Source of the DNA: Candidatus Saccharimonadia bacterium
GTDB taxonomy: Bacteria > Patescibacteriota > Saccharimonadia > UBA4664
DNA: 64,000 nt
Reading direction: 5' to 3'
NCBI GenBank assembly: GCA_036488585.1
Contig: DASXHH010000009.1
Coordinates: 366-64,365 of the forward strand
Part shown: positions 22,285 through 48,725 of the stretch, piece after piece
Layout: every line of letters begins with the position of its first letter
Position numbering within the stretch: the stretch's first letter is position 1
The notes under the pieces: model-generated
Told to the model about the DNA's origin: nothing
Database searches by the model: none
Seen by the model: only the letters and a program-made list of their open reading frames with translations
Made by a program: the position numbers and the translations under genes

Positions 22285-22303
22285 TATGGGGATAATTTCG
22301 TGA

Positions 22304-22352: not shown

Positions 22353-22369
22353 CCGTACGGGTTGGCGGC

Positions 22370-23293: not shown

Positions 23294-23449
23294 CTGGCCT
23301 CACATCCCTTCGGAATCGAGGCCTGGTGTGGCCAAATATCAAACCGTACGACTGTCTTACGACTGAACTATTATACCATTTTATTCTGGTTTGGTCAATT
23401 TAGCGGTTATGGTTGAAGCGGTAAGGGTAAAGCAGGTAGCATAATAGTA

Positions 23450-24286: not shown

Positions 24287-24610
24287 ATTATTGACCGGGA
24301 GTACCCGTAGGTGCGCGAGGATGACTCCGCGGCGCGCTGGGTTGCTGCCAGGTTCGAGGATTCTCGGCGAACCCTAGCCGCCTCACCCTCTAGCTCGCGG
24401 GCGGCTCGGTCCAGGTCCGAGGATTGCCGGCGCATGTCATCGGCCTGTCGCTCCAGGTCATAGGCTGTTCTGTCCAGATCTCGTGGGTCCATATATCGCC
24501 CCTCCTTTAGTGAGGTCGGCTCATTATAGGGGAATCGCGGGGACCATCATTGGGTATTATGCCAAGATGGTAGGGTTGGTGCTGGCATTTTGCACAAGCG
24601 CTCGACCGAG

Positions 24611-26614: not shown

Positions 26615-26773
26615 TCGAGTAATTATAGCAGTTATTTGACATACCTGGTGATAAGTTTTATTCCAGTGCCAGATTGGGACAACACCCAATGTGCTGGCAA
26701 CTATGGACAAGTAGCGTGACCTCGGCACTAAGCCAAGAAGCAGCAAGCTTGAAAATTCGGAAGGAGCTGCCGC

Positions 26774-27601: not shown

Positions 27602-27612
27602 CATCAGGAAGG

Positions 27613-29058: not shown

Positions 29059-29249
29059 GTGAAGGGGCAATGATTGGCGAAGCGGCGGCATAGAAACTGC
29101 CGCTTCGCCAACACTTTTTTGTAATTATTTCCAAATATACACCCCGCGGGCGTTGGTACGATGACGCCACCGTTTTCGGCAATAGCTCATTGAGAATATG
29201 GCAAAAAACAACCTTGGGACGATCGTCCCCACTTGCCCCCGGAGGCAAA

Positions 29250-33174: not shown

Positions 33175-35339
33175 TGCGACTAATACGACGGCTGGGTCTG
33201 CTAACGGGCGCCATGATCGTGGCGCTATCTGTGACAGGCCTGGCGCCCGCCAGTGCCAGCTCTGGGCGACCCCCGGTGCTGGCCTACTACTACATCTGGT
33301 ATAACCAGGCGTCCTGGGGACATGGTAAGAGCGACTACCCGGCCCTAGGACGATATAATAGCGGCGACGCGAACATCATGCGCCAGCAGATCGAGCTGGC
33401 GAAGGGTGCGGGCATCGACGGCTTCATCGTGAGCTGGAAGGAGGCGCCCGACCTGGACGCGCGGCTGGCGACACTGGTGCAACTGGCACAGCAGGAGCAC
33501 TTTAAGCTGTCCGTCATCTACGAGGCACTGGATTACAACCGCCAGCCCCTGCCGGCGGCCAAGGTAGGCAGCGATCTGCAGTGGTTCGCAGCCCGCTACA
33601 GCAACAACCCAGTGTTTAACCTGTTCGGAAAGCCGCTGGTGATCTGGTCGGGAACGTGGATGTTCTCGCCCAGCGACATTCAAAAAGAAGTGGCGCCAGT
33701 GAGCAACCAGTTGCAGGTGCTGGCGTCGGAAAAAGACACTTCCGGATATCAACGACTGGCCGCGAGTGTCGCCGGTGACGCATACTACTGGTCGTCTGTG
33801 AACCCCTCCAGTAACCCCGGTTACGGCGTCAAACTGCACGACATGGCAAACATAGTTCACGCCGACCATGGGCTGTGGATTGCACCCTTTGCCCCTGGCT
33901 TCGATGCTCGGGACGTGGGCGGCCATGACGTGGTGTCGCGCAACGATGGCGACACACTAAGGACTGAGTACAGCACGGCGGTCACCTCCAGTCCTGATGC
34001 GCTGGGATTGATTAGCTGGAACGAGTACTCGGAGAATTCGGAGGTCGAACCCAGCCACAATACCGGCACGCTGTACCTGCGGGTACTACGCCAGCTCACT
34101 CACGGGCTCGGACCGAGCGCCGCTGAGCTGGGTATCGACTCCAGCGATTCCTCGGGCTCGGGCGGCGGCGGCCTGGCGCTACCCTTGCTAGGCCTGCTCG
34201 CGATACTGGTGCTCGTGACGATAGTGGGGATTCGCATGCGTGGCGGCCGCAACGACAACGACGAGGACGAGCCGCCTCCCCCACCACCGCGTCGCCGAGT
34301 TAGTTCAGGAAAGTTTCGAGCCGTAATGCGCCGCCGCGGGCTCGGACTCATCGTTGTGATGCTGGTGGCGCTGGTGCCGGCGGGAGCGACGGTGATTCCC
34401 AGCGACAAAGTCACTGAGACACCTCGTACAACGACGGCGGTGCCCGCGTCGGCGGTGGCTCATTACATGGGGCACATGCCGCCGGCCGGCAAAACCACAA
34501 TCACGATAGCCGCGGCCGGCGACATCGCCTGCACCGCGGGCGACCCGGATGCGGCTAACGCCCCGCTCTACAAAAACGATGTCTGCAAACAGCAGACCAC
34601 TGCCAACCTGATAACCAAGGTGATCCATCCGGATGCGGTGCTGCCGCTGGGCGACAACACCTATCCCAGCGGCAGCTTCAAAGGTTTCGAGCAGCTATAC
34701 GACCCGACATGGGGCAAGCTCAAGGCCATTACCTACCCAGTACCAGGTAACCATGAGTACGGCACGCCCGGAGCTAGCGGCTACTTCGCTTACTTCGGAA
34801 AGGCCGCCGGTATGCCAGGTCAGGGCTGGTACAGCTACAACATCGGCGACTGGCACATGGTGGCTCTCAACTCCGAGTGCGAGGATATTGGCGGCTGCGG
34901 CCGCGGGTCGCCCGAGGAGAGCTGGCTGCGGGCTGACCTGGCGGCCCATCCGGCGGCTTGCACGCTGGCCTACTGGCACAAGCCGCGTTGGAGCTCGGGC
35001 ACACACCACAGCAACGCCGCCTACAACGTCTTCTGGCAAGACTTGTACGCGGGCGGCGCTGACCTGGTGCTGGTCGGCCACGACCACGATTACGAGCGGT
35101 TCGCGCCGCTCGATCCCAGCGGAAAGGTGGATAACAACCGGGGAGTCCGGGAGATTGTAGCTGGCACCGGCGGCGACAGTCACTACCTCATACACACCCC
35201 GGTGAACGGTAGCCAGCGCCGCATCCAAGGAATATTTGGAGTGCTGGACCTAACGCTGCAACCACATGGTTACAGCTGGAAGTTTTTGGCGGAGCCAGGG
35301 GCGGGCGTGCTCGATTCTGGCTTGGCGGCCTGCCACTAA
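33171..35339 (+). CDS. fusion protein: N-terminal glycoside-hydrolase-like domain (GH99-like YYYxWY region) - TM - Pro/Arg-rich loop - TM - C-terminal calcineurin-like metallophosphoesterase
   Basis: PPVLAYYYIWYNQASW...GIDGFIVSW in the first domain. Two internal TMs (LALPLLGLLAILVLVTIVGI; LGLIVVMLVALVPAG). Second domain has GDIACT, GDNTY, GNHEYG and GHDHDYER. It is one uninterrupted ORF. Confidence 0.65.
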   Translation: MMRLIRRLGLLTGAMIVALSVTGLAPASASSGRPPVLAYYYIWYNQASWGHGKSDYPALGRYNSGDANIMRQQIELAKGAGIDGFIVSWKEAPDLDARLATLVQLAQQEHFKLSVIYEALDYNRQPLPAAKVGSDLQWFAARYSNNPVFNLFGKPLVIWSGTWMFSPSDIQKEVAPVSNQLQVLASEKDTSGYQRLAASVAGDAYYWSSVNPSSNPGYGVKLHDMANIVHADHGLWIAPFAPGFDARDVGGHDVVSRNDGDTLRTEYSTAVTSSPDALGLISWNEYSENSEVEPSHNTGTLYLRVLRQLTHGLGPSAAELGIDSSDSSGSGGGGLALPLLGLLAILVLVTIVGIRMRGGRNDNDEDEPPPPPPRRRVSSGKFRAVMRRRGLGLIVVMLVALVPAGATVIPSDKVTETPRTTTAVPASAVAHYMGHMPPAGKTTITIAAAGDIACTAGDPDAANAPLYKNDVCKQQTTANLITKVIHPDAVLPLGDNTYPSGSFKGFEQLYDPTWGKLKAITYPVPGNHEYGTPGASGYFAYFGKAAGMPGQGWYSYNIGDWHMVALNSECEDIGGCGRGSPEESWLRADLAAHPAACTLAYWHKPRWSSGTHHSNAAYNVFWQDLYAGGADLVLVGHDHDYERFAPLDPSGKVDNNRGVREIVAGTGGDSHYLIHTPVNGSQRRIQGIFGVLDLTLQPHGYSWKFLAEPGAGVLDSGLAACH

Positions 35340-35620
35340 CATGGCGAAACTGGGCCGGGGTGCAATTTTTGCCCCCGGCTCGGCCCCTCAGTCAATTGCT
35401 TGGGGGTATGAACGATTTTTGCGCAAAGGTGCGCTATTTTTTTAGGACTTATAGAGATGAGTGACAGTCGTGAGTGGTTTAGGTTTTACACAAGCCGTTT
35501 TTTTCAGAAAAAAGGGGCTGGGTTCGGGCACCTTTCGGGTGCAGGGGGATCTTTCACAACCAAGAGCACATGCTGCTCGTATCGAATCGTGCAAGTGAAG
35601 CAACGAGGAAGAGGCAGACC

Positions 35621-37510
35621 ATGTCTAATGCCATGCCACAAACACAGACCGCTACCGACACAGTGCCGGAGCCCCGGCTCTGGATTATGCGCCTCCTTAG
35701 TCACCGGTTTACGCGCGAGGCCATCAGCTGGGCTATCGTCGGACTCACCGGCGTAGCCGTAAACCAGCTCGCGCTCTGGGTGTTCGTGCAAATCGGCCTT
35801 GGACTGTGGCTAGCCAACATCCTGAACACGCCGGTCTCGACCACCTGGAATTTCTGGTGGATCGAGAAGCAGGTATACCACAGTAGCCGTCACCATCGAC
35901 TACGCCGGTTCGCCGGCGTGCTAGCAATCAACACATCGCTACTCCTGGTGCAGGGGCCGATGCTCATCTTTCTCATCGAGGTGCTACATAAGCACTATCT
36001 GACGGCCAACCTGCTCACACTCGCGCCGCTGTGGATCGTGCGCATGCTGTTGAGCCGGACGCTCTGGTTCAACACGTTCACGTCGGCGATGGCCGGCGCC
36101 GGCACCATTACCGACATCCCGGACACCATCGACCCAGACGAGCGCCGCGGTCCGGCGCGCCTAATCGAAGACGATGAAGTGCGGGGGTACCTCTACCGGA
36201 ACCATCTGCGCTGGAAGCCGCGCGGCCACCGGCGTAGGTTCTTCTACGACGTACATGGTTTGGTCCGGATCGTGAGCGATGTGCGCCTGCCAGAGCTGAC
36301 CGTATTCCAGATACAGCTGCACAACAAGAAGCGAATCGAGAGATTCGTGAAGCGCAGTCAGATTAAGATCGCGCGAGGGCGAGTCGGCAACACCACGCCG
36401 CGACGGCGGGTTGAGGCTTACCGAGTGAATGGTAAGCTGTTTAGCTACCTGGAACAATGTGGTAACCTCGGCGCCAACTTCCATGTTTCCCATAAGCACG
36501 GCGGGGAGCGCGTTCAGATTCGGGTGAGCCCACTGCTGGCTGGATCACCGCATGTGCTATACACCAACGTGGTGGAGGCCGTACTGCGCTTTATGTTGGC
36601 GCAGCGCGGGTACATGCTACTGCATTCGGCTACCATGGAGCTCGATGGGCGCGGAGTAATGCTGTCCGCCCGCACGGACACCGGCAAAACCGGCACAGTC
36701 CTGCGGATGCTAGCGGAACACGGGGACCGTATCCGGTTCCTATCCGACGACATGACCATCGTGAATGCCAAGGGTGAAGCCTGGTGTTACCCCAAGCCGC
36801 TAACTATTAGCTCGCACACACTGCGGGCCGTGAACCGCAAGGCGCTGAACCGATGGCAGCGAGTATTCCTGCCTGTCCAGAGCCGGATCCATTCCAAGAG
36901 CGGCCGAGGGTTCGCATTCCTGCTGGCCAAGCTCAACCTGCCGATTATGTCGATCAACTGCCTGACGCAGATGATCATCCCGCCACCCAAGTACTGGGTG
37001 GACGAACTGGTGCCGTGTCGAATCGCCAGACAGACCAAAGTGAAGCACTTGTTTATCATCGAGCGCGGCCACCAGATGAGCGAGCGCCCGATCGGGTGCT
37101 ACGAGGCTGTGGACGTCATGTTGGCTAACACCGAAGACGCCTACGGCTTCCCACCGTTCGCGATACTGGCGCCGGCCCTCACTCTCGGCGAGATCAACAA
37201 CCTAGTGCTGCGGACACGTGAGCGCGAGATCCTTAACGAGTTCCTGCGCTACATTCCTGTCACCAATCTGGTCGACCCCAACTTTGGTTGGGCCGATCGC
37301 ATTCCGGCGGCGCTGGCCAAGGGTGCACTGCCGAGTTTCCTCGTCCAGCACCAGATTGACAGCGAGCAGCTTCTGGCTCGCCAGGCGGTGCAGTCGGCGC
37401 CAGAGCTGCCGGCACTGGACGGGAGCCATGTGCCAGCCAACGGTACGGTCCTCAGGGGCGTGGTCGTGAAGATAATCAATGCCGAAAACGGTAACCAGGC
37501 GGAGGGGTAG
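35621..37510 (+). CDS. GtrA-like membrane domain fused to a large cytoplasmic domain with P-loop-like motif (AxxxxGKT; HprK/kinase-like?)
   Basis: N-terminal 4-TM GtrA-type region (AISWAIVGLTGVAVNQLALWVFV... WNFWW). C-terminal ~480 aa contains LSARTDTGKTGTVL and an RFLSDD segment. Confidence 0.6.
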   Translation: MSNAMPQTQTATDTVPEPRLWIMRLLSHRFTREAISWAIVGLTGVAVNQLALWVFVQIGLGLWLANILNTPVSTTWNFWWIEKQVYHSSRHHRLRRFAGVLAINTSLLLVQGPMLIFLIEVLHKHYLTANLLTLAPLWIVRMLLSRTLWFNTFTSAMAGAGTITDIPDTIDPDERRGPARLIEDDEVRGYLYRNHLRWKPRGHRRRFFYDVHGLVRIVSDVRLPELTVFQIQLHNKKRIERFVKRSQIKIARGRVGNTTPRRRVEAYRVNGKLFSYLEQCGNLGANFHVSHKHGGERVQIRVSPLLAGSPHVLYTNVVEAVLRFMLAQRGYMLLHSATMELDGRGVMLSARTDTGKTGTVLRMLAEHGDRIRFLSDDMTIVNAKGEAWCYPKPLTISSHTLRAVNRKALNRWQRVFLPVQSRIHSKSGRGFAFLLAKLNLPIMSINCLTQMIIPPPKYWVDELVPCRIARQTKVKHLFIIERGHQMSERPIGCYEAVDVMLANTEDAYGFPPFAILAPALTLGEINNLVLRTREREILNEFLRYIPVTNLVDPNFGWADRIPAALAKGALPSFLVQHQIDSEQLLARQAVQSAPELPALDGSHVPANGTVLRGVVVKIINAENGNQAEG

Positions 37511-37640: not shown

Positions 37641-38309
37641 TTATTCCGTGGGCTCGGAAAGGCCTTGGCTGTGCAGAAACCGTTCGTGAATTTCGAGGGC
37701 CTCGTCGGCAATCTCCTGCGGATCGGAGGCGCCACGGAAGATAAACTTTTCTTCGGCGCCAGCCGATTCAATCTCCACATCGCCGTAATTGAAGATGGTT
37801 CGGGCAATGCCCTTGCGAGTGCCGGTGACGTCCTGAACACGCACGAAGGCTACCTGCGAAATCCGATGGCTAAACAGTCCGTATTGCTCGGCCACTAGCA
37901 GGTGAACGTTAGTAAAGATGAGCACATTGCGCTGATATACGAACAGTCCGATTAGAAAAATAAGGGCCGCCAGCACCAGCAAGATCACCACGAGTGCGAA
38001 AACCATGAGACGCGGGAACGGGATGGTATCCGGGTAGCGTCCCTCGCCAAACGCGAACGCGAGGGCTACCAGTATAAGCAGAACCGATGTGAACAACGTG
38101 GGCAATAGAGTGAGCGGATGACGGTGAATAATTCGGGTGATTTGCTCACCGGGATCTAGATCGAAGCCATAGGGCGTGGGAGTCTCGCCGGGCTCGGGCA
38201 ATTCGCCCGTTTCGGCCGAGTGCCCGACGGTTGGACCCGGCTGCTCGGGGGCCGGTGGCTGGGCTTGAGCCGGCGATTGGTTGGGCGTTGGAATGGGAGT
38301 TTGGTCCAT
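37641..38309 (-). CDS. bacterial PH-domain (bPH_2/YdbT-like) membrane protein
   Basis: Two TMs followed by a PH-like region (VLIFTNVHLLVAEQYGLFSHRISQVAFVRVQDV...IFNYGDVEIES). Confidence 0.6.
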   Translation of the reverse strand: MDQTPIPTPNQSPAQAQPPAPEQPGPTVGHSAETGELPEPGETPTPYGFDLDPGEQITRIIHRHPLTLLPTLFTSVLLILVALAFAFGEGRYPDTIPFPRLMVFALVVILLVLAALIFLIGLFVYQRNVLIFTNVHLLVAEQYGLFSHRISQVAFVRVQDVTGTRKGIARTIFNYGDVEIESAGAEEKFIFRGASDPQEIADEALEIHERFLHSQGLSEPTE

Positions 38310-38324: not shown

Positions 38325-39491
38325 CTACCCGACTTTGCCGAAGCCAGATGCCATTAAATTGAGTATCACCAGGGTGAGGCCGGAGAGCTGAGCGGCGGCG
38401 AACAGGCGGTAACGGGGGCTACGCCAGCGCGACAGACCCTTGCGCCATACCACCATGTGTGTGGCCGCGTACACGACGAGCAGCAGCAATAGCAGCATGA
38501 GCGTGGCCTGGGTATTCCAGCTGAGGGTGGCCACAACGGATAGTGGACGGAACAGACTATAGGCCTGAGGCTTGGGAGCCAAGGTGCCCGCTGGCGCCGG
38601 CGAGATTTCGCCGCTCACGACCGGCGGCGTGCCGATAGGCGTGGGCACTGGAGTGGGCGTAGGAACCGGGGTCGACACTGGAGTGGAGGCGGGGGTGGAG
38701 GCGGCGGCCACAGTGGGTCGTGGGGTGGTGGCCGGTGCTGGTGCTGCGGCCACCGGCTGGGCGGCTGTGGCGCCATAATGCGCCACCACCAACGTGGTCG
38801 GCTCGTTGGCCTGGGCTACTGGTGCGGTGCAGGTGGGCGTGGTGTAAGCCGAGCTGCCGCTCGAGGGAATGCTGTCGTAGGGCGACTGGCCGTTTTCCAC
38901 CGCGAAGCCGACGTCGGTATAGTGAGGATTGAGGATGTTGGCGCGGTGGCCGGGCGAATTCATCCAGCCATCCATCACGCCCTGGGCGGTGTCGAAGTCT
39001 TTAGCCAGGTTTTCGCCAGCGTAGGTGTAGTTGTAGCCAGCCAGCGTAAACCAGTGCCAGGGTTGGACGCAGGCCGGGCTGACATGGTTCCAGTAGTCGT
39101 TTGCGAACATGTCTTGGGCCTTCATGGAGGCGGAATTGTTAAGTCGCGCGTCCATGCGCAGAGCGGGCAAGCCACCTGCGGCGCGCTGTTGGTTGGTGAG
39201 ATCGAGCAGCTGGGTGGGCGTGATGCTGCCGGTGGCGTAGGACAGCACGTTACCGCCATTGGTGCTGCCGGCACCTTTCACTATAGGGGTCGGGGCGGAA
39301 TGGTGGATGGCCGTCGCCAGCGCGGAGGCTTGCAACCCGACGATTAGCACGGCCATCAGGGCCAGGCCGGGCAGACGGATCAAGTGGGGGCGATGGTCGT
39401 TGTGGGTATGCGGTACCAACCAGCGCTTGGCGTGACGCGCGAGGTGGTGATGCAACCGAACGGGTTGAGTTTTGCGCTTAGGTGTTCGCAT
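38325..39491 (-). CDS. secreted CAP/SCP/PR-1 domain protein with PT-rich linker and C-terminal TM segments
   Basis: CAP motifs (LLDLTNQQRAAGGLPAL; GENLA; GHRANILNPHYTDVGFAV). Low-complexity PVPTPTPVPTP linker. Confidence 0.7.
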   Translation of the reverse strand: MRTPKRKTQPVRLHHHLARHAKRWLVPHTHNDHRPHLIRLPGLALMAVLIVGLQASALATAIHHSAPTPIVKGAGSTNGGNVLSYATGSITPTQLLDLTNQQRAAGGLPALRMDARLNNSASMKAQDMFANDYWNHVSPACVQPWHWFTLAGYNYTYAGENLAKDFDTAQGVMDGWMNSPGHRANILNPHYTDVGFAVENGQSPYDSIPSSGSSAYTTPTCTAPVAQANEPTTLVVAHYGATAAQPVAAAPAPATTPRPTVAAASTPASTPVSTPVPTPTPVPTPIGTPPVVSGEISPAPAGTLAPKPQAYSLFRPLSVVATLSWNTQATLMLLLLLLVVYAATHMVVWRKGLSRWRSPRYRLFAAAQLSGLTLVILNLMASGFGKVG

Positions 39492-39545
39492 AAAATGCCT
39501 ACGTTAATTGTACACAGTCTTTTTGCTGAGGTGTACCATGAGATC

Positions 39546-40268
39546 ATGGAAGTTCTTACGGTTAAGAAGTTATACAAACAGTACGGGCGGGCCGAAGCCG
39601 CTCGCGACATCAGTTTTTCAGTCGCAGAGGGTGAAATATTTTCGCTGGTGGGCCCTAACGGTGCAGGCAAATCAACCACTTTGCGTATGATCGCAACGAT
39701 CCTGCGGCCGACTGCGGGTGAGATTAAGATTGCTGGGCACGATGTACAGCAGGAGTCCGGGAAGGTCCGTGAATTAATTACCTACTTGCCAGAGGAATCG
39801 GGAGCATACAAAGCGCTAACAGGCCGGGCTTACCTTAAATTCATGGCAGGTCTGTATAGTACCGATGCGGCGAAGCAGCATGAGTACGTGCACAAAGCCG
39901 AAGAAATCACCGACTTGGGCGAGAAGTTAGATACCAAGATCGGCACTTACAGCAAGGGCATGACGCGTAAGCTACTGCTGGCCAGGGCCATGATGACTGC
40001 TCCGAGACTGGCGATACTGGATGAGCCGACCAGCGGGTTGGACGTGCTCAACTCGCTGGAGATCCGCAAATTGATCCGGCGGTTGGCCGAGCACGGCACA
40101 GCGGTACTGCTGTCGAGCCACAATATGCTCGAAATTGAATATTTATCCGACCGGATAGGCCTGATCGTGAGCGGACAACTAAAGGAAGTGGGGACGGCTG
40201 AGGCGCTCAAGTCTAAGCACAAGGCCCGGAACCTGGAAGAGGTATTTTTGAAGGTGGCACAGGCATGA
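39546..40268 (+). CDS. ABC transporter ATP-binding protein (ABC-2/NatA-like)
   Basis: Walker A GPNGAGKST, signature YSKGMTRK, Walker B LAILDEPTSGLD, H-loop. Confidence 0.9.
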   Translation: MEVLTVKKLYKQYGRAEAARDISFSVAEGEIFSLVGPNGAGKSTTLRMIATILRPTAGEIKIAGHDVQQESGKVRELITYLPEESGAYKALTGRAYLKFMAGLYSTDAAKQHEYVHKAEEITDLGEKLDTKIGTYSKGMTRKLLLARAMMTAPRLAILDEPTSGLDVLNSLEIRKLIRRLAEHGTAVLLSSHNMLEIEYLSDRIGLIVSGQLKEVGTAEALKSKHKARNLEEVFLKVAQA

Positions 40269-41527
40269 AACGATTTATGGTGCTGCTGGGCAAAGAGTTG
40301 CGGGAACTCCTGACACCGCAGACGATTTTGCCGATAGTGCTGGTAATTTTGGCCTTCATCGGACTGGGCAAGGTTCTTTCCCAACAGAGCAAGGTGGCGA
40401 GCAAACCCCAGCCGGTGCTGGTGGTGGACCACGATAGCACACCAGCCTCAGCGGCAGTGGCGAAGCTACTGAAGGCGAGCAACTTTGATGTGACCCAGCA
40501 AGCCAGCGACCCGGATTTCAGTCAGAACATTGCCCAAAAAGCGGTGGTAGTGATTCCGGCGGGTTTTGGACGCGACCTGGCTGCCGGCAAGCAGACCACC
40601 CTCGAGACTTACACGGTGCAGAGTGGGTTTTCGCTGGCCAAGATAGCCAACGCCACCCTCCTGACCGGCTTAACAGCCCAACTAAATACTGCCTTGGCAG
40701 CAAGCCGGATAGCGCAAATCGCACCCCGTCTGGACCCGACCAAGGTGCTGGCGCCAGTAAAGAACGACGAGCACATAGTGGCAAATGGCAAAGTGGCGAA
40801 TATTAGCCCCGACAAAATTGCCGCCTATTTGGGCTCCCAGATCACCTTCGTGCCGGTGATACTATTCATTGTGATCGTATTTGCCGGCCAAATGGTGGCT
40901 ACGGCCATGGCGAACGAGAAAGAGAATAAGACGCTGGAGACGCTGCTGTCGCTACCGATTTCGCGGACCACGATTGTCGGGGCAAAAATGCTGGCAGCCG
41001 CCATTGTGGCCGGCGCGACGGCCGTGGCCTACATTTATGGTCTTCATAGTCTGCAGTCGTCTTTCACCGGCGGCGTGGCAGTGGACGATGCCACCAAGGC
41101 GGCGGCAAGCCAGTTGGGGCTGACCCTCTCGACCAGCAGCTATGTAATGCTAGGTGTAGCTTTGTTTCTTGGGATACTGGCGGCTTTGGCGATCGCGCTG
41201 GTGCTCGGAGCATTCGCCGATAACATCAAGAGCATCCAGGCGCTAATTATGCCGCTGCTACTGCTACTATTAGTGCCGTACCTCGCAACGATGGCGACCG
41301 ACATCCAGACACTGCCTGGCTGGTTCAGGGGCGTGCTTTATGTGATTCCCTTCACCTACACCTTCCAGGCCATGCCCAACTTGTACCTCCACAACTATGG
41401 CTTGGTAGCCCTTGGCAGCCTGTATGAGTTGGTGTTTTTCATAGTGTTTATGGTAATAGCGGGGCGACTGTTCGCTTCCGACCGGCTACTAACGCTGCGT
41501 CCGGGCAGCTTGTTTTCGAGGAAATAA
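40265..41527 (+). CDS. ABC-2 family transporter permease
   Basis: N-terminal TM, large extracytoplasmic loop, and 5 C-terminal TMs. Overlaps the ATPase gene by 4 nt (ATGA). Confidence 0.8.
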   Translation: MKRFMVLLGKELRELLTPQTILPIVLVILAFIGLGKVLSQQSKVASKPQPVLVVDHDSTPASAAVAKLLKASNFDVTQQASDPDFSQNIAQKAVVVIPAGFGRDLAAGKQTTLETYTVQSGFSLAKIANATLLTGLTAQLNTALAASRIAQIAPRLDPTKVLAPVKNDEHIVANGKVANISPDKIAAYLGSQITFVPVILFIVIVFAGQMVATAMANEKENKTLETLLSLPISRTTIVGAKMLAAAIVAGATAVAYIYGLHSLQSSFTGGVAVDDATKAAASQLGLTLSTSSYVMLGVALFLGILAALAIALVLGAFADNIKSIQALIMPLLLLLLVPYLATMATDIQTLPGWFRGVLYVIPFTYTFQAMPNLYLHNYGLVALGSLYELVFFIVFMVIAGRLFASDRLLTLRPGSLFSRK

Positions 41528-41532
41528 GCAGA

Positions 41533-43209
41533 CTACTGGCCGGCTTGAGGCGTAACCTCAGCTAGGGCCTGAGCCATCGTGAGGTTGGCGAGGCCGGCGT
41601 TGTGAACGGTAGTCATTTCGGTGGTGAAGTCGGCGGGCGTGGTGTTGTACTCGCCGGCTGCGGGATCGGTGCTGACCTGGTGGTAAACCAAGATGAGCCA
41701 GGTATGATCGGCCGCCGCCTGGTTGATCCAGGCTTGGACCTGGGCCGGAGTGGTGGTGTTGGTGATGTTTTGGACCCGCAACCGGTAGATGTCGAGGTCG
41801 TCTTTCGAGTTGTAACCGGGATCGGTGGTACGCTGTGAGGCGTAATACTGCTGAATCGCGGCGACGGTGCGGTTGTCGTAGGTGCCGTAGGGCGAGGCGA
41901 AATCGGTGACGGGACTACCAAGAACGCTCTGGAGCTTAGTTTGGCTGTTTTTGAGCTCGTTGGTCAGCCGAGTGGCCCCAAGTGTGGTGAGATCGGGGTG
42001 AGTGACCGTGTGTGAGCCAATCTCCATGCCGGCGGCCTTTAGAGCCTTCACCTGGGCCGCAGTCATATAGTCGGGCTGAGAGGTGAGGTTTCCAGAAATG
42101 ATGTAGAAGGTGCCATGTAGGCCGTTTTGCTGCAGGATGGGCAAGGCATTAGTGTACTGATTAGTAAAACCATCGTCGAGGGTGACAGTGACAAGGCCGC
42201 GACTGAAGCCAGTGGGATGGTACTGCGACATGGCATAGTCGTCGGTTTGGAGCCAGCCGTTGGAGTAGAGCAGGTGCATCACCGAGGCGGAGACGGCGCC
42301 GGCGGGCATGTCGTACTCAAGACGCTCCTTGGTCCAGCCCACGGTCTTTAAAGCTGAGCCCATGTAGAGATACTGGGTAGAGCCATCTTGCATGGTAACG
42401 GCGATGTCGACTTCGGTGGCCACATTGGATTGGTACCAGTCGGTGAAGAGGTAATGGCCGCCGGCGACTACGGGTTGGGGCTGGTACATCCAGTTGGCGG
42501 TGCCGCTCTGGTAATTCGACAGTGTGACCTTGAGGCTATGGGTGCCGGTGTGGCCGGAATTCAAATAGGCAAAAGCGTGGGTATTGGTGCCCCAGACAGT
42601 CTTTGTCCAAGAGTTGGGCTGACCGCCTGTGTTGGCTTCGACCGAGGGGTTGGGTACGCCGGAGGCAACTGCAGAACTGGCGTTGGTGAGCGAGAAGTTG
42701 TCGGTGGCGAGGGTGCCGTTGGCCGCAATTAGATGGAAAATTGTAATGAATTTGGCGTTCGCTGGGGCGGTGAAGTTGGCACTCACCTGCTGCCAGCTGG
42801 AACTCGCAGGCACGGTTTGGAGATCGAGATAGGTGTAATTGCCGGAGCCGTCATCGGACTGCACAACCACCGAGGTGCCAACGGTAGCGTGGTAGTAGTC
42901 GCTAAAAGCGTACTGCTGGCTACCGCTGACCGCCACCGGGGTGAAGTACCACTTAGCGTCTCCGCTCTGGTAGCCGGACATGGTAATACCGAGGGCGTGC
43001 GAGCCGTCCTGGGCGCCGGACGCTAGGTAGCTAAAAGTGGCCGTGCCGGTGCCCCATTGGCCTTGGCTCCAGCCCGTGGGCTGACCGGCCGAGGCGGTTT
43101 CGGCCGAGGGGTTAGCGATGATATTGGTGGAGGCAGATGCAGGGTTAATTGGCAACAACAAACTAACCGCCAGCAGTCCAGCCGCCGTGATGCGCGAAAA
43201 CAGTTTCAA
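41533..43209 (-). CDS. secreted polysaccharide deacetylase (CE4/NodB domain) with two N-terminal CBM-like beta-sandwich repeats
   Basis: NodB motifs VTVTLDDGF, HGTFYIISG and IGSHTVTHPDLT. Two ~140-aa repeats each ending in ...TDDY/TDNF. Signal peptide. TTG start preceded by AAAGGAAG. Confidence 0.8.
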   Translation of the reverse strand: MKLFSRITAAGLLAVSLLLPINPASASTNIIANPSAETASAGQPTGWSQGQWGTGTATFSYLASGAQDGSHALGITMSGYQSGDAKWYFTPVAVSGSQQYAFSDYYHATVGTSVVVQSDDGSGNYTYLDLQTVPASSSWQQVSANFTAPANAKFITIFHLIAANGTLATDNFSLTNASSAVASGVPNPSVEANTGGQPNSWTKTVWGTNTHAFAYLNSGHTGTHSLKVTLSNYQSGTANWMYQPQPVVAGGHYLFTDWYQSNVATEVDIAVTMQDGSTQYLYMGSALKTVGWTKERLEYDMPAGAVSASVMHLLYSNGWLQTDDYAMSQYHPTGFSRGLVTVTLDDGFTNQYTNALPILQQNGLHGTFYIISGNLTSQPDYMTAAQVKALKAAGMEIGSHTVTHPDLTTLGATRLTNELKNSQTKLQSVLGSPVTDFASPYGTYDNRTVAAIQQYYASQRTTDPGYNSKDDLDIYRLRVQNITNTTTPAQVQAWINQAAADHTWLILVYHQVSTDPAAGEYNTTPADFTTEMTTVHNAGLANLTMAQALAEVTPQAGQ

Positions 43210-43279
43210 CCTGCTTCCTTTCAGTTATTTAGATATGAAGACGCGGGGGCTGACCCCCGGTAAATAAGGCGACTCTGGC

Positions 43280-43387
43280 TTAGTGTAGCCCTGCCCAAAG
43301 CAAAAACTGTCTGCCAGTGAATACAAACTGGTAGATCAATAATGCAGCGAGAACAGCTACGCCAATCCAGGTGATCCAGCGCTGCAT
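43280..43387 (-). CDS. 35-aa single-TM peptide (MQRWITWIGVAVLAALLIYQFVFTGRQFLLWAGLH)
   Basis: Its ATG lies 4 nt after the stop of the upstream peptide gene, in operon orientation. There is no SD of its own, so it may be coupled to the upstream gene or spurious. Confidence 0.25.
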   Translation of the reverse strand: MQRWITWIGVAVLAALLIYQFVFTGRQFLLWAGLH

Positions 43388-43391
43388 GGTA

Positions 43392-43571
43392 TTAGCGCTT
43401 AAACATTGCCTGGGCCATGTATACAACTGCCCAAGTCGCAAGACCAGCGGCAGCAGCGACAGCCACGTGGGTAGCCGAGCTCATACCGGTCTGGGGCAAA
43501 ACAGTGGTACAGGCAGCGGCGGCGCCACCGGCGATGGTGCAGGAACCTAGAACTTGTCCGTTTCCGTACAT
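43392..43571 (-). CDS. 59-aa peptide with LPQTG + hydrophobic segment + KR tail (cell-wall sorting-signal-like), Cys/Thr/Gly-rich N-terminus
   Basis: GAAAGGAAAG Shine-Dalgarno 4 nt upstream of the ATG. Sits between the GT2 and CE4 genes on the same strand. MYGNGQVLGSCTIAGGAAAACTTV-LPQTG-MSSATHVAVAAAAGLATWAVVYMAQAMF-KR. Confidence 0.45.
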   Translation of the reverse strand: MYGNGQVLGSCTIAGGAAAACTTVLPQTGMSSATHVAVAAAAGLATWAVVYMAQAMFKR

Positions 43572-43585
43572 TGCTTTCCTTTCAG

Positions 43586-44671
43586 TTAATTATTACTTAC
43601 CGCTTCAGTCGCGATGCGGTATCGGCGCCCAGCGGTGCTCCAGCCTGGTGTGGCCGAGCGGAATTTGTGCTGGACGACGATTTCGTACCACGCCCTGAAG
43701 AAGGCAAACAGGTTTACAAATCGCAGGATGTAGAAGAACGGGAAGCCGGAAATCACGTCGGCGCGGTTGTTAACGCCGGCAGCCCAGACGGTGATGCCAA
43801 AGAAGATAGTGAGGTCAGTAAGGAACATGAGCGAGACGGGGCCATAATTTTGCCCCCACCAGGCCAGAAATGGCAGGATGGTGATCTCGGCCAACAGGAT
43901 GAGCTCTTCGGCTACCATCCACAACATATAGCCGTCGACGCGGTGAGGCCGCAGACCGATTTTGTGGCGCAACATAACCTGCCAGGCGCCACGATACCAG
44001 CGCATCACCTGTTTGAAGTAGTCACTGAAGTCCTTGGGATCTTGGGTGAAGGCTTTGGCTTGCGGGATGAAGGCGATCTTGCCGAGTTTCTTGCGGTGAA
44101 TCTGGATGGTGAGGTCCATATCCTCGGTCAGGGATTCGGAATTGAAGTCGAGGTGCTCCAGGATGTCGGTGCGATAAATGCAGGTGGCGCCGGGAATGAC
44201 AGGGATGGCGCCGATGGCGGCCTGAATGCGGCGCATCACCTCAAGGCCAAGCGTGTACTCGAAGGTGCGGTATTTGGAGATCCAGCCGGCCTTGATGCTC
44301 TGGAGATGTCCGGTGGCGGCACAGTATTTGGTGGACAGGCGATTGGTAAGCTCGGCAAAGTAGTTTGGACCAAAGACGCCGTCGGCGTCAGCGATGTGGA
44401 CCCACTCGTAACGATCGGCGATACCGAAGTACTTCAAGCCGCTGAGAATGGCAACGCCCTTGCCGCTTTGGGGCTGCTGAATTACGTGGCCGTCGTCAAG
44501 CATTAGATATGCCAGATCGACGGTCCAGTCGGTGGAGCCGTCGGAGACCAAGAAGATGTCCTCGCGAGGTTGGCCAGCATCAAGAGCCGAGCGAATGGTG
44601 TCGGCGACCACCATCTGCTCGTTGTGGGCTGGAATCAGCAAAGCAAGTTTTCGCTTAGGACTGCGATCCAT
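43586..44671 (-). CDS. processive family-2 glycosyltransferase (PgaC/IcaA/NodC/cellulose-synthase-like)
   Basis: DAD (HIADADGV), TED (SLTEDMDLT) and QxxRW (QVMRWYRG) motifs, with C-terminal TM helices. Confidence 0.85.
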   Translation of the reverse strand: MDRSPKRKLALLIPAHNEQMVVADTIRSALDAGQPREDIFLVSDGSTDWTVDLAYLMLDDGHVIQQPQSGKGVAILSGLKYFGIADRYEWVHIADADGVFGPNYFAELTNRLSTKYCAATGHLQSIKAGWISKYRTFEYTLGLEVMRRIQAAIGAIPVIPGATCIYRTDILEHLDFNSESLTEDMDLTIQIHRKKLGKIAFIPQAKAFTQDPKDFSDYFKQVMRWYRGAWQVMLRHKIGLRPHRVDGYMLWMVAEELILLAEITILPFLAWWGQNYGPVSLMFLTDLTIFFGITVWAAGVNNRADVISGFPFFYILRFVNLFAFFRAWYEIVVQHKFRSATPGWSTAGRRYRIATEAVSNN

Positions 44672-44734
44672 TGCTACACCCTTTCGTGTGATGAAACATC
44701 ATACCGAAATTTGGTCATTTTGTCAAAGCCTACT

Positions 44735-46123
44735 TTAATGCTTAAGCTGTGGTTGGAGTTCTGCATAAGCGTCGTGTACAGTCTTCACCGAAATGCCGGA
44801 CGCGACGACTTTTTGCATGTCGTGAGCAAAGTCGACGTTGTTGCGAGAGAAGGGCGAGCCGGAGGTGTCGACCTGGTGGTACACGAGGATCAGCCAGGCA
44901 TGGTTGGCCTTGGCGGCGTCGAGCCAGCCCTGCAGTTGCTGAGGAGTAGTGTTAACGCTCATATTTACAACCTTGAGCTCGTAAGGGTTGAAGTGGTCGG
45001 CGGTGTTGAGGCCAGTGTCGGTGGAGCGGGCGGTTTGGTAGAGGCCCTTGATAGCGGTTGTGGTACGGACGTTATAGGTGCCATACGGGGCAGCGAAGTC
45101 GGTAGCGGGGTTGTAGCATTTGCTAATAGCGTTGTGCGGAATCGTCAGTTCAGTCCCCAGCTGTTTGTCATTTTGCTTGGTGAGATCGGGGTGAGTGAGG
45201 GTGTGAGATGCGATTTCGTGGCCGGCATTGCGGAAGTCGTAGATATCGCTGGCGGTTTCATAGCCCTTAGTGCCCAGAATGCCGGTCACGATGTACTGCG
45301 TGGAGACCACCCCGTACTGCTTCATGATCGGCAGGGCGTTGGCGTGGGCGCTCTCCCAGCCGTCGTCGAAGGTGATCGAAACCAGCGGCTGCTTAAACTG
45401 GGCTGACGGTGTGGCGGCCTGCAAGGAGTAATCGTCGGTCTCGAGGGCGCCGGCTCGGTCGAGGGTGTGAGATACCATGGCCTGATGCACGTTGCCAGGA
45501 ACGGCAAAGCGCACCGTGTACTGGGTCCAGTTGGTGGAGGACGGAATGGTGCCGAGGCTGTAGTAGCGCTGGTTACCCTGGTCGTCCTTGAACTGGAGGG
45601 TGACATGGGTGGTGACGTTGGAGCGGTAATAATCGCTGAACTGATAGTAGCCGTTTGGCTGGACGCTCGTGAGACCAGTGAACCAGTCGGCAGTACCGTC
45701 CTTGAAGTCGGTGATGTCAATGCGCAGCGCGCGACCGGAGTCGTGGCCCAATACTTGGGTAAACCTGGCATTGTTGTTGCCGGTGTGGTTGTTGTACCAA
45801 CTGGTGGGATTGCCGGCGCTAAGGGTTTCGACGCCGGGGTTCGGGATCAGGTTGGGGCCAGAGGTGGTGACCGGCTGCTGGATGGTGAGCGCGGTGTCGG
45901 ACTCAGAGTCGGTGGCTTGTGACGAGTTGGCGGCGCTGGGAGCATCGGCCACTAAGGCGCCAGGTGCGTTGGTACGGCCCAGGAAGGCGCCGGCTCGGCA
46001 GCGACTCTCATTAATCATCTGGACCGGGTTAACGCCGGCATAACCGACCTGAAACGATCCAAAGCCGCCGATAATTGCGGCAGCGACAAATATGACAATG
46101 CGCTTAGAGAAATGTATGGCCAT
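44735..46123 (-). CDS. secreted polysaccharide deacetylase (CE4/NodB) with one N-terminal CBM-like domain
   Basis: VSITFDDGWESAHANALPIM, HEIASHTLTHPDLT, signal peptide. Confidence 0.8.
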   Translation of the reverse strand: MAIHFSKRIVIFVAAAIIGGFGSFQVGYAGVNPVQMINESRCRAGAFLGRTNAPGALVADAPSAANSSQATDSESDTALTIQQPVTTSGPNLIPNPGVETLSAGNPTSWYNNHTGNNNARFTQVLGHDSGRALRIDITDFKDGTADWFTGLTSVQPNGYYQFSDYYRSNVTTHVTLQFKDDQGNQRYYSLGTIPSSTNWTQYTVRFAVPGNVHQAMVSHTLDRAGALETDDYSLQAATPSAQFKQPLVSITFDDGWESAHANALPIMKQYGVVSTQYIVTGILGTKGYETASDIYDFRNAGHEIASHTLTHPDLTKQNDKQLGTELTIPHNAISKCYNPATDFAAPYGTYNVRTTTAIKGLYQTARSTDTGLNTADHFNPYELKVVNMSVNTTPQQLQGWLDAAKANHAWLILVYHQVDTSGSPFSRNNVDFAHDMQKVVASGISVKTVHDAYAELQPQLKH

Positions 46124-46237
46124 GGTTCATAATCACAAAAGGATTAATCACCATACATTTTATCTGGTGTTTTGTCAACTGCGGCTACGTACTATTTGGG
46201 GCTTGGGAGCACGTAGCCCGCTCTTTTAGAAGCTTGT

Positions 46238-46882
46238 CTACTGGCAGCGGTGGTATTCAAGGGAAATGCGGAAACTGACCGGCTGGGTGAGCTTGGGCGT
46301 TTTGGCAATGAAATAGCGGTTGGTGGCAGTATTGGCAACAGGACAGGTCACAGTGGGAACGGTGAGCGTAGCGTCGACGGTAGTACCGGCGGAGCTGGCG
46401 ATGACGCCGGTGACCTTGAGACCGTAACCGTTGGTGAGCTCGCGGCCACTGGAGAGAGAAACGATGTCGGAGGAGTTAAAGTCGACCGGCAGGATGGGCG
46501 GAATCGAGGGCAGGCCGCTGTGTACTTGGTCCCAATACTGCTGCCAGGCGGCCTGAGTAGTGATAACTTCCTGGCGCTTGGGATAGTTGCCGCCGCTATC
46601 TCCTTCTACCATGAGTTCGAACGGCAAAGTTTGGCCGGCGGGCTCCGTTGGCGTCGTGATGGCATCGCCCAGGAAGGCGCGATGGCCGTCGCTGCAGGCG
46701 GGCGGATTGGTGTCGGTAACGATATAGCCTGCCTGGGTACACTGCGCGAACGAGGTGATGGGCGGCGCCATGCGGCCGCGAAACGCCCAGGATGCCAGCG
46801 CCGACACCACGAATAGGCCTAAGATGGCACCTCCGGCGAGGATTTGTTGACGGCGGCTAAGCGTTCGCAGAGTGATGGCCAC
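46238..46882 (-). CDS. hypothetical N-terminally anchored extracytoplasmic protein (214 aa)
   Basis: One TM (ILAGGAILGLFVVSALASWAF). No confident family assignment. Confidence 0.5.
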   Translation of the reverse strand: MAITLRTLSRRQQILAGGAILGLFVVSALASWAFRGRMAPPITSFAQCTQAGYIVTDTNPPACSDGHRAFLGDAITTPTEPAGQTLPFELMVEGDSGGNYPKRQEVITTQAAWQQYWDQVHSGLPSIPPILPVDFNSSDIVSLSSGRELTNGYGLKVTGVIASSAGTTVDATLTVPTVTCPVANTATNRYFIAKTPKLTQPVSFRISLEYHRCQ

Positions 46883-46884
46883 GA

Positions 46885-47481
46885 TTATAGCTCTTTGGTG
46901 AGGTCCGGCAGTTTACGGTTTTTTTCTTCTATGAGGTCGATGAGGTCGTCGACGAGCGCAGCGGGATCGTGATTGAAAATAATGCCGGTGCGGGCGCGCT
47001 TGGCGGATTTAAGCACGCGCTCGACCTCCTCGGTCATGCCACCGGAGCCGAGCAACACCCCAATGGGTTTGCGCTCCTCGATGGCGATGGTGAGCTCGTT
47101 TAAGGTGCCGATGCGGCCACCCACCATCACCACGGCGTCGGAGCTGCGCACGAGCAGCAGGTTGCGGCCAGTGTACTCGAAACCGGTAAAGAGGATGGTG
47201 TCGAAGGCGTCGACCGGTAGCTGGTATTTTTTGACGTGGGCAATACGACTAGCTGCCGGCGAGAAGCCGATGGAGCTGACGGTGTCGGGTGCGGCCTCTT
47301 TGGCGGCCACGGCGGCATAGTACGGCAGGCCGCGGGTGGCGCCGGAGATCACGAGGTGGCCGCGCCGCACTATTTCGCGGGCAGCCTCGGCGGCCAATTG
47401 CTTGCCCATCTCAATGCTCGGCCCGCGGGCGGCACCAGACACGCAGATCTGGTAGCGAATTTTACTAGCTTTCTGGGTCAC
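46885..47481 (-). CDS. LOG-family / TIGR00725-like Rossmann-fold nucleotide-binding protein
   Basis: ICVSGAARG, VISGATRGLPYYAA and VVMVGGRIGTLNELT motifs of the LOG/YvdD/SLOG superfamily. GTG start overlaps the upstream stop by 1 nt. Confidence 0.7.
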   Translation of the reverse strand: MTQKASKIRYQICVSGAARGPSIEMGKQLAAEAAREIVRRGHLVISGATRGLPYYAAVAAKEAAPDTVSSIGFSPAASRIAHVKKYQLPVDAFDTILFTGFEYTGRNLLLVRSSDAVVMVGGRIGTLNELTIAIEERKPIGVLLGSGGMTEEVERVLKSAKRARTGIIFNHDPAALVDDLIDLIEEKNRKLPDLTKEL

Positions 47482-48725
47482 TATTTAGACCTCACCAGGA
47501 CTTCGGGCTTAATGACGGCATTATCGAGCTTTTCGAGCAATTGCTCCTCGAGCACCTTCTCGCCCATGTAGCGGGCAAATACCTCGTTCCAGAGCGATTC
47601 GCGGAAGTGGTAGAGGTAACGGTCTTGATATGACACAGCGTTGGAGTAACCGAAGCTAAGGTCAAACAGGTTGAAGGTGACGGTGTCGTGGGCGGGACCC
47701 TTAAGGACGGCCACGTAGTCCATGCCTTGCCAGAAATCTAGCTCAGGGTCAATCTCGTACAGCACCTCTTCGGCCCGGCGCCAATGTAGGTCTTCGGGTT
47801 GAAGGTGGGGCTCAAAGATTTCCGGGTGCTTTTCGTTCGTAAGCTTGCCGAAGTAGCGCTGAATGACACGCCAGTGAATACGGGTGGTGTCGGCGATTTT
47901 AACGTGAGCGGGGTCGGCGATGAGCGTGTCGGAAACAATGGCACCAAAATTCTTCTTGGCTTGCATGAGCTTAAAGAACGAACTGTAGAGGCGCACCTCG
48001 TTGAAGTAATGGCACAGCAGCGGGAGAACTTTGAGGGTAATGCCAGGCATATGGGTTTCGACCATGGGCATAACGGCGATGGCGCCCATTTCCTTGGAAT
48101 GCGTGATGTTATGGCGCTTCTTGGCAATGAAGTGCTCAGCGATATCGCCCCACTTTTCAACCGCGAACGGTACTACCTTAATGGGCCGGGTCTCAAAGTC
48201 CGTGGGCTCGAGGTCGAGATAGAGGCGATCGAAGTCGTTAAGCCAGGCGGGGTCTTCGGCGAAACGCAGGGCCAGGATAAGTTCGTAGATGTTTTCCTGT
48301 TCGAGTAGCCGTGACACCAGATGGTAACCGAGGCGTTCCATAATAGCCATGGGCGGCATGTGGCGCAGCATCTCGCGAGCCTTGTCTTCTTTCAGGAACC
48401 AACCGGACTTAGGTAACGGGGCGGCTTCAGCGGCTTTCACGATGAGCGGGATCATCTCGCGCAGATCGGTGGGGTCAGTGCCGCCAATGGAGCGGGCGGC
48501 GTGGTCATCGTCGGCGGCCACCTTTTTAATGAGGGCATCGTAGAGCTCGGGGCCGGTGGCATCTGGGCCGAGGCCGAGCCGTTTGGCGTGCGAGGCAGCT
48601 TTTTCGGTGATTTCAGCGGTGAGCTTGGCATCAACCCCTTTTTGGTGCGTTAAGAGTTCTAGCTGGTGAAGCGCATGATCGAATAGCGGTTCCTTGGCTT
48701 GTAGAAATCGTCCCAGATTAGACAT
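47481..48725 (-). CDS. hypothetical protein (~414 aa), no recognisable domain, translationally coupled between PfkB kinase and LOG-family genes
   Basis: Good GGAGG Shine-Dalgarno 6 nt before ATG 48725. Overlaps both neighbours. Confidence 0.6.
   Translation of the reverse strand: MSNLGRFLQAKEPLFDHALHQLELLTHQKGVDAKLTAEITEKAASHAKRLGLGPDATGPELYDALIKKVAADDDHAARSIGGTDPTDLREMIPLIVKAAEAAPLPKSGWFLKEDKAREMLRHMPPMAIMERLGYHLVSRLLEQENIYELILALRFAEDPAWLNDFDRLYLDLEPTDFETRPIKVVPFAVEKWGDIAEHFIAKKRHNITHSKEMGAIAVMPMVETHMPGITLKVLPLLCHYFNEVRLYSSFFKLMQAKKNFGAIVSDTLIADPAHVKIADTTRIHWRVIQRYFGKLTNEKHPEIFEPHLQPEDLHWRRAEEVLYEIDPELDFWQGMDYVAVLKGPAHDTVTFNLFDLSFGYSNAVSYQDRYLYHFRESLWNEVFARYMGEKVLEEQLLEKLDNAVIKPEVLVRSK

Follow-up and report, generated by a model that had tools for sequence, protein, structure and literature searches.

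We analyzed a 64,000-nucleotide (nt) stretch of DNA from a Candidatus Saccharimonadia bacterium (the window) and concentrated on a five-gene cluster, encoded entirely on the minus strand, in which a processive-type family-2 glycosyltransferase (GT2) and two micro-proteins lie between two predicted deacetylases of carbohydrate esterase family 4 (CE4). A preliminary description of this DNA had called five genes here, and all five are present:

44735-46123, minus strand: CE4A, 462-residue exported NodB/CE4 deacetylase
43586-44671, minus strand: GT2, 361-residue processive-type family-2 glycosyltransferase
43392-43571, minus strand: pep1, 59-residue passenger-less LPXTG micro-protein
43280-43387, minus strand: pep2, 35-residue single-helix micro-protein
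41533-43209, minus strand: CE4B, 558-residue secreted deacetylase

The same description guessed that the organism might be an epibiont, and it guessed right: this is a Saccharimonadia bacterium.

A scan of species-representative genomes recovered 391 relatives of GT2. The locus counts given below refer to the best 80 of these 391, almost all of them from Saccharibacteria, or to the 79 independent loci that remain when the window's own copy is set aside. Where at least 3 kb of sequence is available on both sides of GT2 (n = 59), a CE4 gene is found in 54 loci, pep1 in 50, a sortase gene in 35 and a free-standing pep2 in 15. Judged from these gene neighborhoods, the cluster is this organism's version of a module found widely among Saccharibacteria. 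The GT2 protein itself recurs in identical form in one Candidatus Saccharimonadia metagenome-assembled genome and on a 77-kb JGI contig. We rejected several neighbors as parts of the module, namely the ABC-2 transporter (39384-41527), the CAP-domain protein, the PrcB-like protein, the SLOG protein and the PfkB kinase, because their adjacency is kept in only about five to six close relatives. Three loci labelled Bacillota, Parcubacteria and Nevskiaceae (L025, L068 and L082) carry the complete pep1-CE4-GT2-sortase module; these sequences are probably mis-binned or mis-labelled.

The predicted synthase and its putative deacetylase partners

GT2 matches the Pfam families Glyco_tranf_2_3, Glyco_trans_2_3 and Glycos_transf_2 above their cut-offs. 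It had been described from the sequence as a processive enzyme with DAD, TED and QxxRW motifs, and every motif of the processive synthases is indeed present: D44, D95-A96-D97, T182-E183-D184 and Q221/R224/W225 are invariant across 52 GT2 homologs. Its placement rests on family-model scores, profile scores and fold ranking. The best curated family (NCBIfam) is PgaC_IcaA (TIGR03937), with 93.9 bits, and the second best is the XrtG-associated GT2 family TIGR03111, with 47 bits; the score for CelA is 32 bits, and that for NodC (TIGR04242) is 32.7 bits, short of its cut-off of 550. A profile of the GT2 family scores 103 bits against a bifunctional CE4-GT2 protein of Streptomyces (MatB-like), 98 against IcaA, 74 against PgaC and 26 against BcsA, and pairwise identity to PgaC, IcaA and the MatB-like protein is 24-30%. 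By these sequence comparisons, GT2 is nearest to IcaA, PgaC and MatB.

The predicted structure of GT2 (AlphaFold2, mean predicted local distance difference test score (pLDDT) 91) most closely resembles hyaluronan synthase (TM score 0.77-0.79), followed by chitin synthases and BcsA; hyaluronan synthase is also the best sequence-profile match in the PDB (E 1e-9). The glycosyltransferase domain begins at residue 8 and aligns with PgaC only from residue 76 and with IcaA only from residue 46, and the AlphaFold2 model contains no N-terminal membrane helix. After QxxRW, three long C-terminal helices (residues 244-273, 277-300 and 304-333) lead to a conserved W344-S-T-A-G-R349-R350-Y segment, and the protein ends about 11 residues past this gating-loop-like motif. 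W344 and G348-R349-R350 are invariant across the homologs (n = 52), and in a PDB profile alignment W344 coincides with the Trp of WGTRG, the gating loop of the Chlorella virus hyaluronan synthase; comparable C-terminal ends occur in PgaC (RWVSPDRG) and IcaA (TWTSPDRG). In hyaluronan synthase the gating loop, WGTSGRK/R, is essential and joins interface helix 3 to transmembrane helix 5 (PMC11750622). Class I hyaluronan synthases, represented by the Chlorella virus and Xenopus enzymes (7sp7 and 8smn), are the best solved fold match of GT2 and likewise carry W-x-T-x-G-R-K/R after the last interface helix. In contrast to them, GT2 has TED rather than GDDR, lacks by alignment any equivalent of transmembrane helices 1-2 and 5-6, and gives no indication that a second donor sugar is used; it falls outside that family. 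We infer that GT2 represents a hyaluronan synthase core minus transmembrane helices 1-2 and 5-6.

In many distant loci, we observed murB and a murA gene fused to an N-terminal HTH_3 domain immediately upstream of GT2, as in locus L026 (3240-5830) and 27 further loci: 28 loci have the HTH-MurA fusion and 14 have murB. For an enzyme that uses uridine diphosphate N-acetylglucosamine (UDP-GlcNAc), fusion to a DNA-binding domain is unusual.

CE4A and CE4B are paralogs (38% identity) that score 74.9 and 94.2 bits, respectively, against Polysacc_deac_1 (PF01522, cut-off 23.1). The preliminary description presented them as two NodB-type deacetylases with one or two N-terminal repeats resembling carbohydrate-binding modules (CBMs), an account with which both the Polysacc_deac_1 scores and the CE4B fold agree: there is one beta-sandwich module in CE4A and there are two in CE4B. 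Pfam matches to CBM_4_9 (PF02018) amount to 20 bits for CE4A and 23 bits for CE4B, under the cut-off of 25.9, and PF02018 is carried by many homologs. The predicted domain order is as follows:

CE4A: N-terminal hydrophobic anchor; Ser/Ala-rich linker; CBM4/9/22-like beta-sandwich, residues ~91-235; CE4 domain, residues ~243-459
CE4B: signal peptide, cleavage likely after ASA; beta-sandwiches, residues ~30-176 and ~185-330; CE4 barrel, residues 339-555

The N-terminal hydropathy of CE4A reaches a maximum of 2.03 in a 19-residue window. In the AlphaFold2 model of CE4B (pLDDT 89.7), a signal helix is followed first by two beta-sandwiches and then by the CE4 barrel. A Foldseek search returned the tandem CBM22-1/CBM22-2 of Xyn10C (4xup, E 1e-16) as the best solved match of the sandwiches, together with CBM4-2 (4bj0), so that in this model a carbohydrate-binding fold of the CBM4/9/22 type is confirmed for CE4B. 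The barrel matches 7ax7, 4hd5 and 4v33 in Foldseek and has PDB sequence matches as well. The CE4 motifs read TFDDG/TLDDG, HTLTH/HTVTH and LILVYH (TFDDG, HTLTH and LILVYH in CE4A), with a degenerate motif 4. The sequences retain the Asp-His-His metal ligands as well as the Asp and His required for catalysis, and D345, D346, H400, H404 and H510 are invariant. On this basis we predict two exported deacetylases, CE4A anchored in the membrane and CE4B secreted.

The best NCBIfam family for both CE4A and CE4B is HfsH (NF050820), with 88 and 77 bits against a cut-off of 400, and scores to IcaB and PgaB are much lower. HfsH, the holdfast deacetylase of Caulobacter, acts on an adhesin that contains N-acetylglucosamine (GlcNAc). 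The CE4 match spans nearly the whole HfsH model, but HfsH has neither a signal peptide nor CBM modules, whereas CE4A and CE4B are multidomain proteins with predicted export signals. A CE4 gene adjoins GT2 in 70 of the 80 loci and is often translationally coupled to it. The earlier proposal of deacetylation in the style of poly-N-acetylglucosamine (PNAG) systems is supported as regards the coupling of CE4 genes to GT2; the best match of the CE4 domains is HfsH rather than IcaB or PgaB.

Homologs of CE4B also occur outside Saccharibacteria. In Dactylosporangium sp. NBC_01737 (CP109153.1, locus L084, 4587-10157), full-length homologs with 42-45% identity contain three CBM repeats and a CE4 domain, and such a homolog is divergent to a distant QxxRW-type GT2 (395 residues, 21% identical to the GT2 of the window) and a CBM_3 membrane protein. 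This case may reflect gene exchange between Saccharibacteria and their host phylum Actinomycetota, or an older shared module.

It is instructive to set the cluster beside the PNAG systems PgaABCD of Escherichia coli, IcaADBC of staphylococci and MatAB of Streptomyces, the last of which has been reported to make PNAG (PMC5972031). The synthases share with GT2 the D, DxD, TED and QxxRW motifs and a C-terminal W-x-S/T-x-x-R-G/R, and in these systems, too, there is a CE4 partner and the synthase gene is followed by genes for small membrane proteins. In MatB the CE4 and GT2 parts are fused, which agrees with the tight CE4-GT2 gene coupling seen here. The differences are as follows: GT2 lacks N-terminal helices, and the micro-proteins are two separate single-helix peptides without similarity to PgaD or IcaD; the CE4 enzymes carry CBM4/9/22-like modules and are nearer to HfsH than to IcaB or PgaB; and a PgaA porin, IcaC and a glycoside hydrolase domain are all absent, while a sortase and an LPXTG component are added.

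The micro-proteins and the sortase genes at related loci

Both micro-genes recur across loci, and we therefore rejected the possibility that they are chance open reading frames. The preliminary description was right to include the two micro-peptides; it missed the LPXTG nature of pep1, and its start for pep2 has been revised. The pep1 gene begins 15 nt past the GT2 stop codon, and the ATG of pep2 (43387) follows the pep1 stop by only 4 nt, a distance that suggests translational coupling from pep1 to pep2.

A hidden Markov model (HMM) of pep1 finds a homolog near GT2 in 64 of the 79 independent loci, with E values down to 1e-25. The window copy consists of a 24-residue uncharged stub rich in Gly, Ala and Thr, the motif LPQTG, the conserved helix AVAAAAGLATWAVVY and a KR tail. 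Its score against the NCBIfam model LPXTG_anchor (TIGR01167), 17.7 bits, is above the cut-off of 15.9, and its NCBI product name is LPXTG cell wall anchor protein. The family as a whole has the same layout: a Met, often followed by Tyr-Gly, an uncharged and moderately hydrophobic stub rich in Gly, Ala, Thr and Val (median 21 residues, range 11-30), then LPxTG, the helix and a basic tail. Within the motif, L, P, T and G are each conserved in 63-64 of the 64 sequences. We found neither an N-terminal signal peptide nor a passenger domain in pep1, where only 24 residues precede LPQTG. Compared with the LPXTG anchoring of Gram-positive bacteria, then, pep1 has the full sorting signal (LPxTG, hydrophobic helix and basic tail) but no passenger and no classical signal peptide, and it conserves the helix past the cleavage site. 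In sequence terms, pep1 appears to be a sortase substrate that is little more than a sorting signal.

Several observations set pep1 apart from generic anchors. Among 1.84 billion representative proteins, the pep1 profile has 43 matches, of which 35 are 52-75 residues long and match over their full length; by this measure, pep1 is a discrete mini-protein family. The post-cleavage helix follows the conserved pattern A..A...GL..W[GA]..Y, which generic sorting signals do not have. In close relatives this helix is more conserved than the stub, and a pep1 homolog in locus L008 (7079-7258) has lost LPxTG (it reads TLSQND) while keeping the helix (VVWGLIY) and the basic tail. Such conservation of the helix indicates that it has a role of its own. 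The gene keeps within ~3 kb of GT2 in the 64 loci across GT2 identities of 40-70% and across rearrangements, and its position varies: after GT2, before CE4 or in an operon with the sortase gene. We considered a pilin-like polymerizing unit unlikely, because a Lys in the stub is missing in 26 of the 64 members, the window copy included.

The second micro-protein, pep2, consists of a short N-terminus (MQR here, a basic MKR in most relatives), one hydrophobic helix (hydropathy 2.19) and a YQ, which is a YH-type motif elsewhere. A 53-residue reading frame with a TTG start that overlaps pep1 is the less likely form of the gene; the 35-residue ATG form agrees with the homologs. These are found in more than 20 loci directly after the pep1 or GT2 stop codon (HMM E values of 1e-17 to 1e-7). 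In the clade of window-like loci they follow pep1, and in seven distant loci pep2-like reading frames begin at the GT2 stop codon; a free-standing pep2 is present in 20 of the 79 loci (21 of 80 with the window copy). In other clades, the CE4 enzyme that is coupled to GT2 has as its N-terminal anchor a helix resembling pep2, with scores of 29, 22 and 16 bits against 1-5 bits for control anchors. This suggestive similarity may reflect kinship between pep2 and the CE4 anchors. The recurrence of pep2-like reading frames and CE4 anchors beside GT2 suggests that a helix of this type remains with the synthase. A BLASTP comparison of pep1 and pep2 with PgaD of E. coli and IcaD of Staphylococcus hominis gave nothing better than E 0.9, so that no homology to these subunits was found in this search. 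The result also bears out the earlier remark that the small genes are unlike those for PgaD and IcaD yet occupy their position, since both sets follow the synthase gene.

Clustering of all reading frames in the loci revealed a third conserved family, a sortase gene that adjoins GT2 in 45 of the 79 loci, either beside it or convergent with it. The encoded proteins match Pfam PF04203 with 56-96 bits (cut-off 26.6) and carry TLxTC or TxQTC motifs, and they fit none of the NCBIfam sortase classes A-F. The pep1 gene is downstream of GT2 but on the other strand in 15 loci; in L066, the single locus checked among these 15, pep1 is directly upstream of the sortase gene on the same strand. Almost no other LPXTG proteins are encoded in these loci. 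Cultivated Saccharibacteria encode several sortases, one of which is essential (PMC10633639, supplement). Together, the gene neighborhoods hint at a link between a sortase and polysaccharide synthesis that has not been described before.

A partial parallel is found at exopolysaccharide loci with PEP-CTERM proteins and exosortase, among them those of the XrtG-associated GT2 family TIGR03111, where a protein-sorting transpeptidase and short-tagged substrates are encoded together with polysaccharide synthesis genes. The likeness is one of analogy only: neither the transpeptidase family nor the sorting motif is related to the sortase and LPXTG found here. The essential exopolysaccharide locus of Southlakia (SEML1_0081-0083) was considered as an instance of the same module and rejected, as it is a Wzx/Wzy-type system. 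In the literature on Saccharibacteria or Patescibacteria with sortase, LPXTG or deacetylase, we found no description of the module.

Proposed mechanism and its alternatives

Starting from the observed gene content, motifs, predicted folds, conservation and gene neighborhood, we consider it probable that the cluster is a PNAG-like synthase and deacetylase module in which the micro-proteins complete the membrane part and one of them is processed by a sortase. Such a module would most likely make a GlcNAc-based surface polymer by a synthase-dependent route and have it partly de-N-acetylated outside the cell. The cytoplasmic GT-A domain of GT2 would polymerize a UDP-sugar, and the chain would be threaded through a membrane channel; the donor, as we infer, is most likely UDP-GlcNAc, and the linkage may be beta-1,6, beta-1,4 or of another kind. 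With no N-terminal helices and an end just after the gating-loop-like motif, GT2 alone would have too few helices for such a channel. We therefore propose pep2 and pep1 as helix suppliers: in a complex with GT2, their single helices would probably provide the missing channel helices, a role likened to the one thought to be played by the two-helix subunits PgaD and IcaD. Outside the cell, CE4A and CE4B would bind the polymer and remove some of its acetyl groups, making it cationic and sticky. The sortase, finally, would most likely cleave pep1 at LPQT|G and pass on the short hydrophobic stub, either to the wall or to some other amine, a transfer that would link the envelope with the synthase complex or with its product. 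The sortase may anchor the stub to the wall, tie the polymer to the peptide through glucosamine (GlcN) amines or control the synthase.

A more far-reaching version, which we regard as unlikely, is that the whole is one machine that covalently anchors a synthase-made glycan through the sortase. The CE4 enzymes would then expose GlcN amines on the emerging GlcNAc polymer, and either a GlcN amine or lipid II would resolve the sortase thioester while the LPXTG peptide is docked at the synthase. The polymer would thereby be attached to the wall or to an anchor consisting of a hydrophobic peptide.

A number of findings weigh against the proposed module. The match of GT2 to TIGR03937, at 93.9 bits, does not reach the equivalog cut-off of 422.3. 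Of the Ica/Pga/Nod logic invoked in the preliminary description, the Ica/Pga part is supported as a mode of operation, with PgaC_IcaA as the best family and a CE4 gene beside GT2 in 70 of 80 loci, but membership in those families is not supported (94 against 422 bits, and 33 against 550 for NodC). Hydropathy of the helix at residues 304-333 fits a membrane crossing and a position on the membrane alike. The Arg of CE4 motif 3 is missing, with AAPYG and ASPYG in place of RxPY, and the CE4 domains are as close to HfsH, BA0330/BC0361 and acetylxylan esterases as to the PNAG deacetylases. Neither a motif search nor tblastn found a sortase in the 64-kb window, and within 6 kb of GT2 none was found in the eight loci of the window-like clade (GT2 identity at least 55%).

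Part of this evidence would fit a situation in which the genes do not form one pathway: the CE4 enzymes would be peptidoglycan deacetylases of the PgdA/PdaA type, protecting or remodeling the cell's own wall or that of the host, while GT2 makes an unrelated polymer such as a beta-glucan. The CE4 domains do score 28-53 bits against the PdaB, PdaA and PgdA models and match many peptidoglycan deacetylases of solved structure, xylan and glucan are the best-known ligands of CBM4/9/22 modules, and murA and murB stand upstream of GT2 in some loci. However, CE4 and GT2 genes are neighbors in those 70 loci in several different arrangements, and the stop codon of one often overlaps the start codon of the next; the scores of GT2 to PNAG synthases exceed that to cellulose synthase three- to fourfold; and the best CE4 family, HfsH, deacetylates a polysaccharide other than peptidoglycan. 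We judge this separation of functions to be improbable. It is still less probable, indeed very much so, that GT2 is not a polymerase at all and, like GtrB or DPMS, loads a single sugar on polyprenyl phosphate for the decoration of wall polymers or proteins. Such a role would suit a small protein (361 residues) with few membrane helices, the good fold match to the archaeal mannosyltransferase PcManGT, which is of similar size (TM score 0.64-0.66), and the PMT-like and GtrA-like genes elsewhere in the window; but TED, QxxRW and the C-terminal W..GRR are invariant hallmarks of processive synthases, hyaluronan synthase is the better fold match (TM score 0.79), and the nearest relatives in sequence are IcaA, PgaC and MatB.

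The remaining alternative concerns the micro-proteins. Here pep1 would be an ordinary sortase substrate or regulator, connected with the cluster by synteny only, and the synthase would be completed by pep2 alone or by oligomerization of GT2. The varying position of pep1 among loci and the lack of a nearby sortase in the window clade would be readily understood in this way, and small membrane proteins that modulate sortases are known, for example SafA (PMC9282373). We nevertheless think this unlikely in view of the persistence of pep1 within ~3 kb of GT2 despite rearrangements (64/79 loci), a post-cleavage helix with a conserved pattern absent from generic sorting signals, and the retention of that helix without LPxTG in L008. 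In the PNAG-like module that we favor, the Ica/Pga logic is known, and the new element would be that the synthase is paired with a sortase and a passenger-less LPXTG protein.

Surrounding features and biological significance

A consensus scan of the cluster found two sigma-70-like promoter sites, each of them a pattern match only:

44698-44726, minus strand: promoter-like site TTGACA-17 nt-TATGAT in the 63-nt gap between CE4A and GT2 (11/12)
46150-46178, minus strand: promoter-like site TTGACA-17 nt-TATGGT upstream of CE4A (10/12)

The pep1 ATG is preceded by the ribosome-binding site AAAGGAAAG and the TTG start of CE4B by CTGAAAGGAAG; the context CTGAAAGGAA is shared, preceding pep1 and CE4B alike. 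Between pep2 and CE4B lies a GC-rich hairpin (CGGGGG-TCAG-CCCCCG, 43244-43259, minus strand) with no clear U-tract. This hairpin, not flagged in the terminator scan, could reduce read-through into CE4B. A search of 41000-47500 for riboswitches and other RNA families gave none at E ≤ 1.

Directly upstream of CE4A, a gene on the minus strand (46238-46882) encodes a 214-residue exported protein with a weak match to the dentilisin subunit PrcB (28 bits, cut-off 125). Its position is kept in L008 and L014, and L013 has an inverted copy. On the other side of the cluster, a CAP/SCP-domain protein with a Pro/Thr-rich linker and C-terminal membrane helices (38325-39491, minus strand) is followed by a bPH_2-like membrane protein (37641-38309), and this pair recurs near the module in L003, L005, L008 and L014. 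A second envelope-glycan cluster, located upstream (26774-37510), contains a 275-residue GT2, a membrane glycosyltransferase of the PMT_2 type, a 646-residue protein with a GtrA-like domain, and a fusion of a GH71/GH99-like domain with Metallophos. Its two phosphoesterases are a Metallophos/purple-acid-phosphatase-like protein and a PF04185 protein. Farther along (15239-26746), uvrC, uvrA and uvrB occur within ~11 kb with unrelated reading frames between them, the three uvr genes being ordinary housekeeping genes.

The surface of Saccharibacteria, which live attached to other bacteria, is poorly characterized, and so is their means of attachment. The module described here, present in hundreds of species-level Saccharibacteria genomes, is a candidate source of a cationic, sticky surface glycan. 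Its synthase would be minimal, with one catalytic protein and two micro-proteins, and could show which helices a processive GT2 needs. We found no described counterpart to a passenger-less LPXTG protein combined with a polysaccharide synthase and a sortase of its own. If it is true that the sortase anchors or controls the glycan, the role of sortases would be wider than now recognized, and envelope assembly in the candidate phyla radiation would become more accessible to testing. Covalent anchoring in particular, if it occurs, would represent a sortase pathway with a glycan as its cargo and a candidate attachment device of the epibiotic Saccharibacteria.

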